Positions 4,208 through 24,047 are shown, counted from the stretch's first letter. The stretch: 24,047 nt of DNA from an uncultured Acidiferrobacteraceae bacterium (GCA_964496605.1 CAZCAK010000001.1:1-24047), one strand, 5' to 3'. The notes: generated from the letters alone by a model not told the origin. A program made the numbers and translations.

Positions 4208-6733
4208 TTACCGCCGCAATCTCAAATAAATCTCGGGCAATTTTTTCGGCAATTGATTCACACGATCGATCACCATGTAATGTCCAGCACCGAATATTTT
4301 CGGTAAATATTCCGCGCCGGCGGGATCGAGCGTGATGCAAAACGGATGCACGCCCTGATCGATCGCCTCCTTCACCGCCATGCGCGTATCTTCATGCAAA
4401 TATTTTTCGTCGCCGCCATCATCGTAATCGGCCGGTCGACCATCCGAAAGGATCATGAGCAATCGTCGTTGACTCGGCGCGTCGCTAAAGCGATGCACCG
4501 CGTGACGAATCGCCGCACCCATGCGCGTGGCGAGGCGCCCGGATAAGCCGCCGATCAGTGCGCGCGCCTTCGTGTCGAGGCGGCGATCGAATGTCTTGAT
4601 CGGATAATAGCTAACGTTGTCGCGATATTTAGACGCAAAGCCGGCAATGGCGTAAGGGTCGCCGACCTGTTCCAAGCTTTCGGCGAATAGTAGGATCGCC
4701 GCACGCAATCGATCGACGATCCGCCCTTCACCTTCGCTGGTCTTGGCCATGATCGAGGTCGAGATATCGGCCAACAATAGGCAAGCAGTATCGCGCTGCA
4801 TGAAGTGCCGTCGCCGATATAACGCCGGCTTCGGCGATAAGCCGGCACGTTTTTCCGCGACATACTGAATCGCGGCTTCGATATCCAGCTCGTCGCCGTC
4901 CAATTGGCGTCGCTGCGGCGCCGGGCGTGTCGGCTTTTGCATCTGAATCGCGCGCTTGAGCCGCTGCAAACTATTGGCGTGTTGTGCGAGTAAGTTATTC
5001 GCCTCCGTAAGATCGGTCTCGTCGAGCTCGCGCTCCTGCACCCAGGCCCAATTACGCTTAAACGCGCCATCGCGATAGTCCCATTCGTGATAGGCAACGC
5101 CTTGCGCGCTGTGATCGCGACCGCGCGCGTATCCAATGACATTCGCCGGTTGCGGAATGCCGACGCCGACACGGCCGCCGGTACCGCTAGTGTCCTCCGG
5201 CGGGATGTCGAAATCGGGATCGTCGCCTTGCGCGGCCTTAGGGATGTCACGCGCGTCGGGATTCGGTTTGATCTCATCTTTTTTGACGATGTCGTCGCGA
5301 TCGAACGTACCGGTACCGAATTCAGCATCGTCGAGCTCGGCGCGTGGATAGATCGCGCGCGCGGCATTCGGCCCGCGCGCCGGTAAATAACAATCCGCGC
5401 GCAGTTTGAGTTCGGGAATTGGCGGTAGGTTGGTGTCGCGATACAGCACATTGGCAATATTGAATGCGTCCACTATCGTGGCGTCGCGACGAAGCAATGG
5501 CGTCAGCCGCGCATCCAGCGTCTCAAGCCCGAGCGCACCCATGAGGGTCGCGCGCGCGAACAGATAATATTCACGCGCCGGCGATGCGCTTGGGGTTTGT
5601 GCTTGCGCCAGACGATACAAGCGCGCCAAATGATTCGGTACTTGCGCATTGATCGCATAGTCCACGCGCAAATCTTCGCAAATATCGAACAACAGCTGAA
5701 AGCGCAACATATTATCGCCATAGTGCGCAAACAGCGGCCGCCAGGTGATACGTTGCCGATCATCGAGTGGTGGGTGCTCGCGTCCGACGGTGCGAAATAA
5801 AGCCTCGATATAGCGTCGCTCGTAGGAATGAAACGCCAAGTGCCCGGCCGCATGAATCACTGCCGTCAGCGCCTCATCGCGCGTCGGCAAGGCCGCCGGT
5901 AAATACAGGCTGCGAGCGTCGGTTTCGATGAAGGCACGCCCTTGATCCGGCGTCCAGCCACTGTCCTCGAACTCAACGCGCTCGCGGAACCACACCGCGG
6001 TCACAAGTTGCAATAGCCGCTGATGTTCCGCTAAGCGAAACCCCGGCATGTGTTCCAATAACAGCGCCAGACTTTCCGGTGTCTCTAAGCGAAAGAACGC
6101 CTCGCCGCGCAAGCGGCCCGCCTGCATGATGTCGGCGCCGCGCTGGGCCCACGGGCGCACCGACTCGACACCCAATAAATCGCGCACGCGAATCGCGCCA
6201 CGCAAGTAGCTCCCGAGCGCCAGTCGACGTTGAAACAATTCGTCCGCAGGGGCCAGTAGCGCCTCGATCGCGGCAATACCGGCACCGCCAGTAAACTCAC
6301 CGATATCGGTACGAAAGTAGGCAATGCCGCTATCGAGATGGCGTGCGCACCAGTCAAGCCCGATTTCGGCCCAGCGCACCTCGCCGGTGGCGCCGAGCTG
6401 CGCGTACGCCTGCGGCAGCTGTTGCATGAAACCCTCGAGCGCCTTGTATGAGCCGCGCCATTGCGCAAAATTCAGCGCCTGTTCAGTCCAGGGCCGCACG
6501 GCATTGGCGGCTTGCGCCGCGGCGATACTGCCACGAATAAAACTTTTACCAGCGTCGCGATCATGCATGAATAACGTTTTGCACGCGTTGACCCATAGCA
6601 ACGCCGTGGCGGCGCCGAAACGTTCGATCGCCGGCAGCGCTGCGGCGGTATCGCGATGCGCAACGAAGCTGATCTCTTCCAGATCAACCAGGACTTGCTG
6701 AATCGCGGCGAGTGTTTCTAATTCTGACATCAT
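4208..6733 (-). CDS. CbbO/NorD-type von Willebrand factor A domain protein (AAA+ adaptor), 841 aa
   Basis: YHEWDY motif, DGDELDIEAAI, MIDAS DISTS ... TRMGAAIRHA ... LSDGRPAD, C-terminal LPKKLPEIYLRL; directly downstream of a CbbQ-type ATPase. Confidence 0.88.
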   Translation of the reverse strand: MMSELETLAAIQQVLVDLEEISFVAHRDTAAALPAIERFGAATALLWVNACKTLFMHDRDAGKSFIRGSIAAAQAANAVRPWTEQALNFAQWRGSYKALEGFMQQLPQAYAQLGATGEVRWAEIGLDWCARHLDSGIAYFRTDIGEFTGGAGIAAIEALLAPADELFQRRLALGSYLRGAIRVRDLLGVESVRPWAQRGADIMQAGRLRGEAFFRLETPESLALLLEHMPGFRLAEHQRLLQLVTAVWFRERVEFEDSGWTPDQGRAFIETDARSLYLPAALPTRDEALTAVIHAAGHLAFHSYERRYIEALFRTVGREHPPLDDRQRITWRPLFAHYGDNMLRFQLLFDICEDLRVDYAINAQVPNHLARLYRLAQAQTPSASPAREYYLFARATLMGALGLETLDARLTPLLRRDATIVDAFNIANVLYRDTNLPPIPELKLRADCYLPARGPNAARAIYPRAELDDAEFGTGTFDRDDIVKKDEIKPNPDARDIPKAAQGDDPDFDIPPEDTSGTGGRVGVGIPQPANVIGYARGRDHSAQGVAYHEWDYRDGAFKRNWAWVQERELDETDLTEANNLLAQHANSLQRLKRAIQMQKPTRPAPQRRQLDGDELDIEAAIQYVAEKRAGLSPKPALYRRRHFMQRDTACLLLADISTSIMAKTSEGEGRIVDRLRAAILLFAESLEQVGDPYAIAGFASKYRDNVSYYPIKTFDRRLDTKARALIGGLSGRLATRMGAAIRHAVHRFSDAPSQRRLLMILSDGRPADYDDGGDEKYLHEDTRMAVKEAIDQGVHPFCITLDPAGAEYLPKIFGAGHYMVIDRVNQLPKKLPEIYLRLRR

Positions 6734-19457: not shown

Positions 19458-20642
19458 TTAGGCCGGCAAGACGCGTGCGAAATATGCCTTCAAATACGCC
19501 GTTTCGGGAATTGCCGCTTGTATCGGGTGATCCGGCGCCTGGCCGCCGGCTTCGACGATCTGCATTTGACGATCGAGATGTCGGCTGGCCTGCAGCAACT
19601 GCTGCAGTAAGATTTCGCGCGGCATATGGTAGGAACAAGACGACGCGATCAGGATGCCGTCTTTCGCCAGCACCTGCATCGCCATTTCATTGATGCGGCG
19701 ATACGCCTGCACCCCTTCGGTGACATCTTTTTTACGCTTAATGAACGCCGGTGGATCGACGATTGCGACATCGAAACGCGCGCGCTGCGCGCGCAGCTCG
19801 CGCAAGGCGTCAAAGGCATCGGCAACGATGGTGTCGACGCGCACCGCGTTCAGCGCCGCATTTTGCGCGATCCAGTCCGCGGCTTTGCTGGCACTATCGA
19901 TGCAAGTGACGGCGGCGGCGCCGGCGTGCGCCGCCTGCACGCCCCAGGCGCCGACATAGGCGAAGACATCGAGCACGATTTTGTCTTTCACATACGCCCG
20001 CATGCGCGTGCGATTGGCGTATTGATCGTAAAACCAGCCGGTCTTTTGTCCGGCCAATAGCGGCGCCTGAAAGCGCACACCGTTCTCAAGAACGTCGGCA
20101 TACTCCGGCACCTCGCCCTGCGCGACCTGGATCTCGCGTGGTAACCCCTCGAGCTCGCGACTGGCGCTGTCGTTGCGCCATAATACCGCGCGTGGCCGCA
20201 TCACCTTATTCAACGCCGCGAGAATCGCATCCTTGACGCGCTCCATACCGGCGGTGGTGACTTGCGCTACGTAGATATCACCGTAGCGATCGATGACAAG
20301 ACCCGGCAGTCCGTCGCTCTCGCCGAAGACCAAACGATAATAAGGCTCTGGGTATAAGCGCGAGCGCAAGGCCAGCGCGATATTAAGCCGATGCGTCAGC
20401 AGCGATTGGTCTAATACATACGCCGGATCGCGGCTCACCAGGCGTGCGCAAATTAACGAATGCGGATTGACGTAACCGGTGCCCAGCACATGGCCGTTGT
20501 GCGCCTCGACTTGCACCAAATCACCGGGCGCGAACGCCGTGAGCGGTGTGTGCGCAATATCGACCTCATTGCTGAACACCCATACATGGCCGGCGCGTAA
20601 CCGGCGTTCTTCGTTTTTCTTGAGGCGTAGCGGCGGCAACAT
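19458..20642 (-). CDS. rlmI: 23S rRNA m5C1962 methyltransferase RlmI family
   Basis: RRLRAGHVWVFSNE, ESDGLPGLVIDRY, GQKTGWFYDQ, LDVFAYVGAWG, DPPAF. Start moved to 20642. Confidence 0.88.
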   Translation of the reverse strand: MLPPLRLKKNEERRLRAGHVWVFSNEVDIAHTPLTAFAPGDLVQVEAHNGHVLGTGYVNPHSLICARLVSRDPAYVLDQSLLTHRLNIALALRSRLYPEPYYRLVFGESDGLPGLVIDRYGDIYVAQVTTAGMERVKDAILAALNKVMRPRAVLWRNDSASRELEGLPREIQVAQGEVPEYADVLENGVRFQAPLLAGQKTGWFYDQYANRTRMRAYVKDKIVLDVFAYVGAWGVQAAHAGAAAVTCIDSASKAADWIAQNAALNAVRVDTIVADAFDALRELRAQRARFDVAIVDPPAFIKRKKDVTEGVQAYRRINEMAMQVLAKDGILIASSCSYHMPREILLQQLLQASRHLDRQMQIVEAGGQAPDHPIQAAIPETAYLKAYFARVLPA

Positions 20643-20677
20643 GGCGCGCATTATAGCGACTTCACTGCACGTCCCAA
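20643..20677 (-). promoter_or_regulatory. Candidate sigma70 promoter of rlmI (possibly leaderless)
   Basis: Minus strand TTGGGA (20677-20672), 16 nt, TATAAT (20655-20650), 7 nt, ATG (20642); no SD. Confidence 0.5.
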
Positions 20678-20695
20678 CAAAATATCGTCGCTGCT

Positions 20696-21520
20696 TTAAA
20701 AACCTCGCGGCGAAACCGTGCGTCGCCGGCTCGCCGCACGCCAAACCGCGGCCACGATCGGCAAGAGTCCGAGCACGCTGACCACGCTAGCGCCGGTCGG
20801 AAGATCACCGACGTAGGATAACCACAGCGCGACTGCGCTCGCGGCCGCGGCAAATGCAGCTCCGAGCGCCAGACGCTGTGCGAATCGAGTCACGATCAGT
20901 GAGGCGCTGAACGCCGGAATGATGAGATACGCGAACACCAACAATACGCCGGCGAGATCGAGCGCCAGCGTAATCACAATGGCAAATGAAACAAAAAACA
21001 GCGCCTCCCAACGAAACCGTGCCGGCATGTCTTCCTCGAATGACAGCGCATAGAACTGCCGCCGAAACGCCAGATGCAATAACGCCAACACGCCGTATAT
21101 GGCAGCGAGCAAACCGACATCGCGCCACTGTGTCCATAATATATTGCCGTTGAGCATCGCCTTGAGCTCTTCCATGCCGGAGCTGGAACGCGATAACACC
21201 ATCACCGACGCCGCGGTTGCGACGACATACACCGTACCAATCGCAACCTCGCGCGTGACCTTGTCGGGCACGCGCCGCAAGGCGGCGAACGCCAGCGCTG
21301 CGAGAATCGCCGCACCGAAGGCATAGGCATGCGCCGCCAGGCTATGCGCATCGTGGCCCACTAAGAATGCGACGCTGCTGCCGAATAAGGCCACCTGCGC
21401 CAACGCGATGTCAACGAAAATGATGCCGCGCGCCAACACATGCAAGCCGAGGTAAGTATGCGTCAGGATCAATAACACGCTCACTGCAAACGCCGGCGCG
21501 AGAATTTCCCAAGCGCTCAT
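20696..21520 (-). CDS. Metal ABC-type permease (ZnuB/MntB-like)
   Basis: Multi-TM protein; HVLARGIIFVDIALAQ, LAGVLLVFAYLIIPA, DLPTGASVV. 4-nt ATGA overlap with the binding-protein stop. Confidence 0.85.
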   Translation of the reverse strand: MSAWEILAPAFAVSVLLILTHTYLGLHVLARGIIFVDIALAQVALFGSSVAFLVGHDAHSLAAHAYAFGAAILAALAFAALRRVPDKVTREVAIGTVYVVATAASVMVLSRSSSGMEELKAMLNGNILWTQWRDVGLLAAIYGVLALLHLAFRRQFYALSFEEDMPARFRWEALFFVSFAIVITLALDLAGVLLVFAYLIIPAFSASLIVTRFAQRLALGAAFAAAASAVALWLSYVGDLPTGASVVSVLGLLPIVAAVWRAASRRRTVSPRGF

Positions 21521-22437
21521 CGCTTCGGCTCCAGCACACCGCTGGCGCGAATCGCGTTGACGATCGCATCGAATAAGCCGAGGTAATCTTTAATTTCCGG
21601 CGTCGCGCCAACCGATGCCGGCAGCACCGCGAGCTTGATGCCGCTTTGCGCCGTGAGAAAATCCGCCGAACGCCGTTCGTAATAAGGCTCTTCGATCAAT
21701 AAAGGAATGCGTTCGCGCTGGATGCGTTCGATTAATGCGCGTAAGTGTTCCGCATTCGGCGGGATGCCCGGCTTCGGCTCAACTTGATCGACAATCTCGA
21801 AACCGAAGGCACGCGCGAGATACACGAACGAGGTGTGATACGAAATCACCTTCGTGCCTTTCAACGGTGCCAACGCCGCGCTCCATTGCGCGTAGTGTTG
21901 GTCGATCGCCTTGCTGAAACTGTCAGCGTTAGCCTTGAACTGGGCGGCATGCGCTGCATCGAGCTGCGATAGTCGCTGCGCCATCGCCTGCGCCATGCGG
22001 GCGCCGTTGCGCGGGTCGAGCCAATAGTGCGGATTGCCTTCGGCGTGCACATCGCCCTGTGCGCGCGATACCAGTCCGTTGGGCTTATCCAATAATTCCA
22101 CGCTGGTGGATAAATCGAGATAGCCCGACGCACCTGGTTGCACCTTGCCATTGCGCGCGTTTTGCAATAACGGCGGCAACCAGCCCTGCTCCAGCGCCGC
22201 GCCGACGACGAATAAGGCATCGGCGCTATAGACCTTGCGAATCATGCTCGGCTTCGCCTCGGCGTAGTGCGGATTGGCGGCACCGCCGGTCAAACTATCG
22301 ACCTTCACGGCATCGCCGCCGACGCTGCGCGCGATCGCAGCGAGATCCTCAGTCGCGGTGACGATGTTCAGTTTTGCCTGCGCCGCAAGCGGTAGCGCAA
22401 GCACAATCATGGCGGTGATGATGCGAACTAAAAACAT
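21517..22437 (-). CDS. Zn/Mn-type (cluster A-I) metal-binding periplasmic protein
   Basis: Signal peptide (..AAQA), NPH, GDVHAEGNPHYWLDP, YHTSF, VEPKPGIPP. Start moved to 22437 (AAGGAG SD). Confidence 0.88.
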   Translation of the reverse strand: MFLVRIITAMIVLALPLAAQAKLNIVTATEDLAAIARSVGGDAVKVDSLTGGAANPHYAEAKPSMIRKVYSADALFVVGAALEQGWLPPLLQNARNGKVQPGASGYLDLSTSVELLDKPNGLVSRAQGDVHAEGNPHYWLDPRNGARMAQAMAQRLSQLDAAHAAQFKANADSFSKAIDQHYAQWSAALAPLKGTKVISYHTSFVYLARAFGFEIVDQVEPKPGIPPNAEHLRALIERIQRERIPLLIEEPYYERRSADFLTAQSGIKLAVLPASVGATPEIKDYLGLFDAIVNAIRASGVLEPKR

Positions 22438-22448
22438 AACGCACTCCT

Positions 22449-23672
22449 TTAGAATTGATGCGCGGCATGCGCGCCGAGCGAGAACTCGTATTGCATCCAT
22501 ACCGCGTTCACGTTTTTGTCGGCGAGTTGCGGCGCGAAGTCGCGATTATATTGCACGCGCAATTTACTGAACTCGGTCGGATACCAAGTGAGATTCGGCG
22601 CTAGGCGCCAACGTCGATTGCGCAGCGCATCGCTCGCGTCGCCGTTATTCGCCGTGGCATATTCGCCGCGCAAGGCCGCGACCCAGCCGGGCTTGTAGCC
22701 CCACAATACCTGCGTGTAGGCGCCATTATCTTTCAGCGTTTCGGTCGGCGTTTCGTAATTGCGCCATAGCCATTCGGTTTGCCAGGCGGTGAACGGGAAG
22801 CCGCGTGTGTTCTGTGCCGCCTTGCGCTTCACATACCAATCGACACCGAAGATATTCGTATTCGTATCGGTACCGGTTCCATTCGGACCGTGCAATGCGG
22901 ACATGCCGATATTGGCGCTGGTTTCGTCCGAGACATCGATGCCATTGAGCCAGCGCGCCGACCATAAAAGATCGCCGAAGCCGCGCGCGCCTTGGCGATC
23001 GATCAGCGTATGACCCGCGACCGTCTCGCCCGGATTCCACAGAAAGCTCGTCAGCGTATCGCCGCCGGCGTTTTGTGCGCCGAGATACAACTCCGAATAC
23101 CAAGGCAAGGGCGTCAGCCACGACACGCGTGCGCCGGTGCTGCGCAATCCGTCGGCGCCGAAAAAGCGCGTCAACACGATCGGCTGATCGACGAAGGCCC
23201 AGACGTGCGGATGTTGCGGATTTTGCCGACCGAATTCGGTGAAGTACTGTCCAGTTTTCACTTGCAGGCCGGCGGGCAAGGCACGCGTCAGTAGATACGC
23301 CTCCTCCAACTCGACGGCGGTCGCGCCGGTATCGTCGATGAGCGTGACGATATTCGCTTGGGCGTCGAAATAAGGATCGACCGCGCCACCGGCAATCAGC
23401 TCTAAGTTTTGCACGGTGAAGCCGTTGCGACGCGGATCATGCCCGCCGCCTTCGACGGTGCGCAGATCCGGATCGTTCACACCGGCGCCGCCGAAACTAA
23501 ACGTACCGGTTAGTCCGAGATTGAACGGTTGGCCGCTATTGGTTTGGCCGCTACTCGCGTTAACACCTGGCGCCGTAGACGACGGCATGGCGGCGTTATC
23601 GCTCGGCGCCGCGTTCGCGTCCAGGCCGGCAGTGCTACCGGCCAGTAATAAACACAGTGCATAAACACGCAT
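22449..23672 (-). CDS. Putative outer-membrane beta-barrel with His motifs, associated with metal uptake (407 aa)
   Basis: Signal peptide, alternating aromatic strands, terminal Phe; GGHDP, ELEEAY, GRQNPQHPH and GAHAAHQF motifs. Start moved to 23672 (GAGGAG SD). Confidence 0.7.
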   Translation of the reverse strand: MRVYALCLLLAGSTAGLDANAAPSDNAAMPSSTAPGVNASSGQTNSGQPFNLGLTGTFSFGGAGVNDPDLRTVEGGGHDPRRNGFTVQNLELIAGGAVDPYFDAQANIVTLIDDTGATAVELEEAYLLTRALPAGLQVKTGQYFTEFGRQNPQHPHVWAFVDQPIVLTRFFGADGLRSTGARVSWLTPLPWYSELYLGAQNAGGDTLTSFLWNPGETVAGHTLIDRQGARGFGDLLWSARWLNGIDVSDETSANIGMSALHGPNGTGTDTNTNIFGVDWYVKRKAAQNTRGFPFTAWQTEWLWRNYETPTETLKDNGAYTQVLWGYKPGWVAALRGEYATANNGDASDALRNRRWRLAPNLTWYPTEFSKLRVQYNRDFAPQLADKNVNAVWMQYEFSLGAHAAHQF

Positions 23673-23693
23673 AGAGAACTCCTCAATGAGAAC

Positions 23694-23717
23694 ATGAAAT
23701 AACCGCCAGACCGGCGG
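23694..23717 (-). terminator. Terminator/attenuator-like hairpin between the uORF and the outer-membrane gene
   Basis: Minus strand CCGCCG-GTC-TGGCGG followed by TTATTTCAT. Confidence 0.5.
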
Positions 23718-23732
23718 CGGCACAATGCGAAT

Positions 23733-24008
23733 TTAAGCGGGTGTGGGTGGACCGCGACTGCGGACAGCGGAGAGCGTGCGATGATAAAAAGTATTGCTGG
23801 ATATAAAAGGCGTCGGCGCGATACCCGGCACGACCACGGCGAGACCGATGCTCGGCATTGCCGCGCCCAGGGGCGCACCGGCGACACACCATTCACAAGT
23901 GTCACCGGCGACATGCGCCGCGATATCCTCTTGATGCACCGCCAGCGCCAGCTGCGCGAACAGCAGCAAAGCGATAAGGACAAAAAGTGAATATCGACGC
24001 GTGGTCAC
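23733..24008 (-). CDS. DUF2946-like small membrane protein/uORF with H-x6-H-x5-CxxC and C-terminal RGPP
   Basis: N-terminal hydrophobic segment (YSLFVLIALLLFAQLALAV), HQEDIAAH, CEWC, hydrophobic/Pro linker, RSRGPPTPA-stop. GTG 24008 preferred over TTG 24035. Confidence 0.78.
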   Translation of the reverse strand: MTTRRYSLFVLIALLLFAQLALAVHQEDIAAHVAGDTCEWCVAGAPLGAAMPSIGLAVVVPGIAPTPFISSNTFYHRTLSAVRSRGPPTPA

Positions 24009-24023
24009 CGCGTTTTTATAACA
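24009..24023 (-). promoter_or_regulatory. Candidate extended -10 promoter for the uORF/metal-uptake operon
   Basis: Minus strand TG-T-TATAAA (24023-24015), 6 nt, GTG (24008); no SD. Confidence 0.4.
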
Positions 24024-24047
24024 GAAGGACCGCAAAATAGAAACGGC

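Follow-up and report, generated by a model that had tools for sequence, protein, structure and literature searches.

INTRODUCTION

To our knowledge, CruR and CutF are the only studied nascent peptides that report a metal to their own ribosome, and in both cases the metal is copper. CruR (Bp2923) of Bordetella pertussis is the prototype of the DUF2946 family (PF11162). Its CxxC motif is required for the copper response and its RAPP motif for downstream expression, and the spacing of 45 residues between the two tolerates a change of 2 residues in either direction but not an extension of 5. Copper relieves the arrest, leading to Rho-dependent termination, and the export signal of CruR is dispensable (PMC9426467). 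In vitro, toeprinting of arrested CruR placed the two proline codons in the P and A sites of the ribosome, and the most robust pair of arrest cores consists of RAPP and RGPP, both refractory to EF-P (PMC12992588). The two motifs are depleted from proteomes and enriched near the C termini of small exported proteins; in the searchable part of the same paper, the genes downstream of RAPP/RGPP proteins include those for TonB receptors, YcnI, PCu(A)C, PepSY proteins, a "carbohydrate porin" and others (PMC12992588). CutF carries CxxxC together with PPP, and in its case stalling is promoted by copper and frees the ribosome-binding site of the next gene from a stem-loop (bioRxiv 10.1101/2025.02.05.636593).

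ZnuA, ABC-3 permeases or a zinc importer as cargo go unmentioned in the searchable text and tables of the CruR, CutF and RAPP/RGPP papers, and we found no paper that combines CruR with ZnuA or zinc uptake. Here, we describe a leader open reading frame (ORF) that, judged from sequence comparisons, belongs to a new, short, His/Cys-type branch of CruR-like peptides, invisible to Pfam and tied to an undescribed porin-ZnuA-ZnuB cassette.

RESULTS AND DISCUSSION

The leader has the layout of a CruR-like arrest peptide

The window analyzed, a stretch of 24,047 nucleotides, is a whole contig from an assembly of 540 contigs that is 88.7% complete. The leader is found at the far end of the contig, on the minus strand (23733 to 24008), with 91 codons from a GTG start at 24008 and a stop codon at 23735-23733, and we read it as a short-form CruR/DUF2946-like arrest leader. 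A TTG at 24035, in the same frame, is an alternative start, which would add nine residues and give a product of 100 amino acids. No recognizable Shine-Dalgarno (SD) sequence was seen ahead of the GTG, and the promoter of the leader lies off the contig, which stops at 24047. The GTG is in the loop of a 5-bp hairpin formed by an imperfect palindrome (ACGCG-GTGACCA-CGCGT on the mRNA strand, 23999 to 24013), which a terminator scan called terminator-like on the plus strand.

Like CruR, the leader is the first gene of a metal-uptake operon and begins with an N-terminal export segment. This predicted signal-anchor (residues 6 to 24, 23937 to 23993) has a mean Kyte-Doolittle value of 2.46, and the hydrophobic block is kept in the alignment of relatives; from R4 and R5 ahead of the segment and the positive-inside rule, an N-in/C-out orientation is predicted. 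Directly after the anchor comes a candidate metal-binding module, H25-x6-H32-x5-C38-x2-C41 (23886 to 23936), in which the CxxC motif reads C38-E-W-C41. It is followed by a spacer of 43 residues (23757 to 23885), of moderate hydrophobicity and with many Pro, Ala, Ser and Thr residues, and then by the RGPP arrest motif, R85-G-P-P88 (23745 to 23756), after which only Thr-Pro-Ala precede the stop. A spacer of 60 nt (23673 to 23732) separates the leader stop from the ATG of a porin-like gene at 23672. The latter has a strong ribosome-binding site, with the SD sequence GAGGAG (23684 to 23679) lying within a weak hairpin, UUCUC-AUU-GAGGA (23679 to 23692).

An earlier note on this DNA had described the ORF, its His/Cys motif, the RGPP and the 60-nt distance, and all of these coordinates and counts hold, its linker of "about 40" residues being 43. 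The CruR-like layout it had proposed is also borne out, with an export segment, a CxxC, a spacer within 2 residues of the 45 in CruR and an R-x-P-P three residues before the end, and the RGPP that it took to be a stalling motif is an experimentally robust arrest core (PMC12992588). ApdA, ApdP and the Streptomyces lividans peptides share this arrest core; they too are small membrane or secreted proteins, encoded ahead of the regulated gene, that carry the core near their C terminus (PMC7897499, PMC10951233, PMC12992588). Those are, however, monitors of Sec/YidC or respond to unknown signals, whereas the leader carries a conserved His/Cys module at a fixed distance from the core.

A six-frame translation of the whole assembly gave 19,014 stop-to-stop frames of at least 60 amino acids. 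R[AG]PP occurred 1 to 8 residues before the stop in 15 of these, and only this leader had, in addition, a CxxC 40 to 48 residues upstream of the motif. The combination of motifs in the leader is thus more than chance.

The leader represents a short branch related to DUF2946

A word-indexed search returned no homologues of the leader. An exhaustive phmmer search of 1.8 billion representatives (E ≤ 1e-3), on the other hand, gave 71 representative protein clusters, nearly all of 89 to 130 amino acids, with three of 133 to 169. Nearly all of them have a hydrophobic N terminus, H-x6-H-x5-CxxC, a spacer of 43 to 45 residues and RAPP or RGPP, followed by one to eight residues and the stop; RGPP is the variant in about a third of the relatives and performs like RAPP in published assays (PMC12992588). 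In an alignment of 58 sequences with about 30% identity to the query, H25, C38, C41, R85, P87 and P88 were invariant, and H32 was at least 90% conserved. A GTG start without an SD sequence and the lack of any Pfam or NCBIfam family above threshold are features that a functionless chance ORF might also display, but 71 homologues with invariant motif residues, in the same operon position across phyla, refute such an origin, and we assign it practically no probability.

Between the CxxC and the arrest motif, the length was kept in the 58-sequence alignment but the sequence was not. Such conservation of length only is, on this comparison, the signature of a molecular ruler and not of a folded domain. 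This bears on whether the ORF could instead encode a stable small membrane or periplasmic protein that is part of the transporter, either as a metallochaperone or as an accessory subunit replacing the function of an ATPase, with RGPP merely slowing translation. A small protein that handles metal could equally have conserved His/Cys ligands and a membrane anchor, and the operon does come without an ATPase (see below). A spacer kept in length alone nevertheless fits a ruler better than a fold, proteomes otherwise avoid the R-[AG]-P-P motif, whose presence close to the end of a small exported protein is a mark of arrest peptides, and the leader is always the first gene. We therefore consider a transporter component very improbable and continue to treat the ORF as an arrest leader.

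The earlier note had linked the leader to DUF2946. By the Pfam HMM itself (PF11162) this link falls short, with 18.1 bits against a gathering cut-off of 23.7 (E 0.0046); the match spans only model positions 49 to 117, the C-terminal half, and at E ≤ 0.01 the same HMM finds only 19 of the 58 aligned relatives. Nor does NCBIfam hold a family for the leader or the porin. Profile-profile comparison, in contrast, upheld the kinship, as hhalign of the short family against three canonical DUF2946 members gave a probability of 85% (E 6.5e-6) over exactly the half from CxxC to RAPP, with the CxxC of the leader aligned to that of canonical members. Canonical DUF2946 genes are rare in the class sample (3 of 151 genomes), and the three used for this comparison, from the same class as the window, encode 130 to 145 residues, with an extra segment between anchor and CxxC that contains a conserved Cys. 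The functional half is thus common to both groups, while the N-terminal half differs, two His replacing the longer Cys-containing segment. Compared with CruR, the leader is about 50 residues shorter and lacks the segment between anchor and CxxC, which in CruR holds a semi-conserved Cys; it has two conserved His before the CxxC, RGPP in place of RAPP, and a score below the Pfam cut-off. Taken on these profiles, the leader belongs to a short sister branch of the CruR/DUF2946 family that is missed by Pfam.

Within the taxonomic order of the window, the leader profile matched 49 of 103 genomes, in most of them once, and the spacer was 44 ± 1 residues in all 38 of the leaders compared (38/38). The second Cys was exchanged for His in 11 of these 38. 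One such locus, L074 (2971 to 3270), together with 10 others of the order, combines a CxxH leader and an extended His-rich stretch with the same cassette. Verrucomicrobial leaders often have one Cys plus several His, and in three loci from Verrucomicrobiota (L121, L122 and L169) a leader with a single Cys and several His ends in E-H-A-P-P and not in R-[AG]-P-P. A second short-family leader, identical to P0006 and with H-x6-H-x6-CxxC and RAPP, was seen at L053 (G007:C161, 2947 to 7089), in an operon for a 340-amino-acid protein resembling an outer membrane barrel, CopC, and a CopD-cytochrome c fusion. In five relatives an in-frame TGA was considered as a possible selenocysteine codon; this was rejected, the TGA being the natural stop after RAPP.

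The leader precedes a porin-ZnuA-ZnuB cassette

Three genes follow the leader on the minus strand. The first (22449 to 23672) encodes a porin-like outer membrane beta-barrel of 407 amino acids that matches no Pfam family and has conserved His motifs. Its AlphaFold model is all-beta but of low confidence (pLDDT 57), and the best Foldseek matches of that model were 16-stranded general porins; this supports a description of the product only as a porin-like barrel without a plug. In the alignment of the porin family (A2), invariant His are found in Q-H-x-H-x-W-x-F-V-D (H154 and H156) and in the C-terminal G-A-H-x-A-H-x-F (H402 and H405). The invariant His may be metal-handling sites in the outer membrane channel. 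The second gene (21517 to 22437) encodes a ZnuA-family periplasmic binding protein (PF01297, E 8e-53). Its longest ORF starts at 22500, and the likely start is the ATG at 22437, 11 nt past the porin stop. An ABC-3 (ZnuB-like) permease (20696 to 21520; PF00950, E 4e-26) is the product of the last cassette gene. The gene after it encodes an RNA methyltransferase of the RlmI/RSP_2647 type, whose longest ORF (19458 to 20744) shares ~50 nt with the end of the permease gene; translation probably begins at the internal ATG.

The cassette thus resembles zinc importers of the ZnuABC and AztABCD types in having a ZnuA-family protein, with His at three ligand positions, and an ABC-3 permease. It differs from ZnuABC and AztABCD under Zur in that a dedicated porin comes first, no palindrome resembling a Zur box lies upstream in relatives, and control is apparently by a leader peptide. 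Neither does the cargo match that of CruR: a porin with ZnuA/ZnuB and no ATPase stands here in place of a TonB-dependent transporter and a PepSY protein.

The survey that the earlier note had proposed, of how often such a leader precedes this type of operon, revealed tight synteny with porin-ZnuA-ZnuB. A leader with a 43-45 residue spacer lies directly before the porin gene in 38 of the 39 fetched loci of the order that have a porin match, and in the loci of the order porin-ZnuA-ZnuB follows the leader wherever the contig reaches. Three leader homologues are on contigs of 1 to 2 kb, one of which still shows the porin gene adjoining the leader. At the nearest relative, L015 (G039:C203, 4836 to 5747), the ZnuA gene is split into frames 4836-5252 and 5277-5747, probably by a frameshift in the assembly.

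Across GTDB, the porin has at least 591 relatives, and synteny was surveyed for the best 80 of these loci. They come from Gammaproteobacteria, Nitrospirota, Verrucomicrobiota, Gemmatimonadota, Planctomycetota, Acidobacteriota, Lentisphaerae and Methylomirabilota. A ZnuA gene followed the porin in 78 of the best 80, and then ZnuB wherever the contig allowed. An arrest-type leader was present in at least 50 of the 75 assessable loci, in about eight phyla; the end motifs among those counted were RAPP (21), RGPP (16) and HAPP (11). Because the leader is present in this many loci across phyla, its association with the cassette appears to be old and broad. In some Verrucomicrobial loci, a further transporter is encoded on the same strand directly after ZnuB, namely a CDF protein in L121, L128, L135 and L137 and a ZIP protein in L122.

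An ATPase is mostly missing from the cassette

A ZnuABC-type importer consists of a binding protein, an ABC-3 permease and a cognate ATPase, and no gene for the last is part of the cassette here. No gene with both a Walker A motif and LSGGQ was found in the window, and 43 of 44 related loci of the order likewise had none; the sole exception, L072, has a weak match to the leader next to a canonical znuCBA-type locus. Among the best 80 wider loci, where the motif pattern overlooked one ATPase (at L112) that Pfam found, about 10 to 11 had a ZnuC-type gene, including L113, L127, L134, L145, L155, L163 and L167. In the ATPase-bearing cassettes, the ZnuC-type gene usually lies between ZnuA and a more distant ZnuB, with 25 to 31% identity to that of the window instead of 33 to 63%. 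Two subtypes of permease, with and without a partner ATPase, are suggested by this difference.

Two complete genomes of the order have no ABC-3 permease gene other than that of the cassette. No ZnuC-like ATPase above 37% identity was present in either; the best match to a cassette ZnuC was a generic ABC ATPase at 31 to 37% identity. The earlier description of the operon as lacking an ATPase holds not only for the neighborhood but, in these two complete relatives, at the genome level. An unrelated ATPase may conceivably serve the cassette permease.

Zinc and copper as candidate metals

The best solved relative of the cassette binding protein is Synechocystis ZnuA, whose zinc ligands we take to be three His. 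The aligned positions H78, H158 and H222 were invariant in 108 cassette binding proteins, and H152 was His in 107 of them. Relatives of the Mn/Fe type have Glu and Asp at two of these ligand positions, which makes manganese unlikely. Of the metals named in the earlier note (zinc, manganese, cobalt or nickel), a zinc type is thus favored by the invariant all-His site, and the same site argues against manganese. Exchange of Cys for His in the leader also suits Zn(II) better than Cu(I), and the genes directly after the cassette in other phyla include four for CDF transporters and one for a ZIP transporter. No consistent Zur- or Fur-box-like words were detected upstream of 54 leaders. Weighing these comparisons, we give zinc about an even chance of being the metal sensed and carried.

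The same arrest-leader mechanism could also operate with copper as the metal sensed and carried, as it is for CruR and CutF. CxxC is a classic Cu(I) motif, and both characterized members of the family sense copper. Moreover, leader P0006 in the relative G007, 45% identical to that of the window, heads a CopC-CopD operon, and in G039, the nearest relative, a DUF305 gene stands just ahead. What speaks against copper is the invariant, all-His, ZnuA-type site of the cassette binding protein, the replacement of the second leader Cys by His in 11 of 38 cases and the single Cys with several His in many Verrucomicrobial leaders, and the CDF and ZIP transporters, rather than copper genes, that neighbor the cassette in other phyla. 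Copper is accordingly an unlikely choice in our judgment, and zinc remains the metal we adopt below. The locus thus probably departs from CruR in its metal; it also differs in a leader-to-cargo spacer of only 60 nt.

RNA features between the leader and the porin gene

The last 78 nt of the leader (23736 to 23813, minus strand) are rich in C and poor in G, with fractions of 0.40 and 0.15. A C/G ratio above 1.5 was found at 44 of 54 related leader ends, whereas the 120 nt before these ends exceeded it in 11 of 54 cases and the 5' ends of the porin genes in 1 of 54. The C-rich end resembles a candidate (rut-like) loading region for Rho; part of its C-richness may come from the coding of Pro, Ala, Ser and Thr. 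CruR likewise has a C-rich region ahead of the next gene, a likeness compatible with Rho-dependent control. Twelve nt past the leader stop starts a GC-rich hairpin with a T-rich tail (23702 to 23721, minus strand), which is terminator-like. A hairpin with a different stem sequence is present at the same offset in the nearest relatives, L015 and L092. Taken alone, the hairpin at 23702-23721 was not significant (z -0.74).

In many relatives, the leader tail from the first codon past RAPP through the stop can pair with the SD region of the porin gene, with sequences that differ by lineage. Such lineage-specific pairing is, in our reading of the alignments, covariation, and in 19 of 54 junctions the duplex between leader tail and SD was more stable than dinucleotide shuffles at z < -2. 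In these relatives, stalling at RAPP would make the ribosome melt the duplex. Related spacers were also more structured than shuffles, 21 of 53 having z < -1.64. In the window, an anti-SD sequence in the leader tail was considered and rejected, since at -4.0 kcal/mol (z +1.25) it is worse than the shuffled controls. A helix between the stop region and the porin start codon in the window (-9.0 kcal/mol) was no better than shuffles (p about 0.7), and the folding of the junction and spacer was not more stable than that of shuffles. The SD of the porin gene in the window was mostly paired in its weak local hairpin at every modeled ribosome position.

These features recall CutF, another small, exported leader that has a Cys motif, stalls at prolines near its C terminus and controls the next gene post-transcriptionally. 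Predicted masking of the ribosome-binding site, as for CutF, is enriched among relatives, but there is no significant masking of the SD by the leader tail in the window. Other properties also set the two apart. CutF has CxxxC and PPP, and its stall is EF-P sensitive, induced by copper and turns on a detoxifying oxidase, whereas the leader has CxxC, RGPP and an importer as cargo. A switch with the polarity of CutF, in which metal induces or prolongs the stall, the porin ribosome-binding site is unmasked and the operon is switched on by metal, could draw on the tail-SD pairing in relatives, which a stalled ribosome could melt, and on CutF itself as a precedent. Yet that pairing is equally compatible with stalling in the absence of metal and is missing in the window, induction by metal makes little sense for an importer-like cassette of binding protein and permease, and RGPP arrest is intrinsically strong and EF-P refractory, in contrast to the PPP of CutF. 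We regard this polarity as quite improbable. For this locus, we instead favor a CruR-like, Rho-dependent route, with the hairpin as a possible helper.

Proposed mechanism

The reading we consider probable, at roughly two chances in three, is that the leader is a short CruR-type regulatory arrest peptide, with scarcity of metal causing a stall that keeps the operon on and availability of metal causing release that turns it off. The leader would be translated first on the operon mRNA, and its N-terminal segment would anchor the nascent chain in the inner membrane. At R85-G-P-P88, arrest is expected when the codon for Pro87 (23750-23748) occupies the P site and Pro88-tRNA the A site. The stalled ribosome would then cover roughly 23765 to 23735, which takes in the 3' portion of the C-rich stretch and ends at the stop codon. 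The His2Cys2 module would at this point be 44 to 63 residues from the peptidyl-transferase center, with C41 at 47 and H25 at 63 residues from the P-site residue. As the ribosome tunnel holds ~35 to 40 residues, these distances would put the metal module just outside it; if the anchor were engaged in the translocon, the module would be within or at the exit of the channel.

When metal is scarce, the arrest would persist and Rho would be blocked, as it is with CruR, and the porin, ZnuA-like and ZnuB-like genes would stay expressed; the stall might also disturb structure in the spacer. When metal is available, the His/Cys module would bind it and fold, or pull the chain, upon which the arrest would be released, the ribosome would terminate and the operon would be switched off. 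Metal-driven compaction could supply the pulling force for this release, and a 29-residue zinc finger is known to give zinc-dependent release of SecM arrest (PMC4571824). Sensing may take place in the periplasm, as the earlier note suggested and as in CutF, or at the cytoplasmic face, which the result with the CruR signal peptide would allow. In this scheme, the sequence features, their conservation and the synteny come from our analysis, and the arrest at RGPP and the CruR logic from the literature; which metal is sensed, in which direction the switch works and how a stall affects the operon are what we infer.

A more far-reaching version, which we put forward tentatively and hold at about one chance in three, is that the leader is a co-translational zinc sensor. 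Its His2Cys2 (or His-rich) module would be a minimal, zinc-finger-like element whose folding around the metal draws the chain out of the RGPP/RAPP arrest, and the leader would replace Zur control of an undescribed, ATPase-independent porin-ZnuA-ZnuB uptake system in at least eight phyla.

Implications

The cassette, being mostly without an ATPase, raises the question of how its transport is energized. As for regulation, control by leader peptides probably extends, on these comparisons, to the uptake of zinc-like metals, and the locus would join a ruler-and-arrest design to a His/Cys module and a zinc-type uptake cassette in a large branch outside Pfam. If this is confirmed, nascent chains would be sensors of a second metal as well, in many phyla that lack cultured models.
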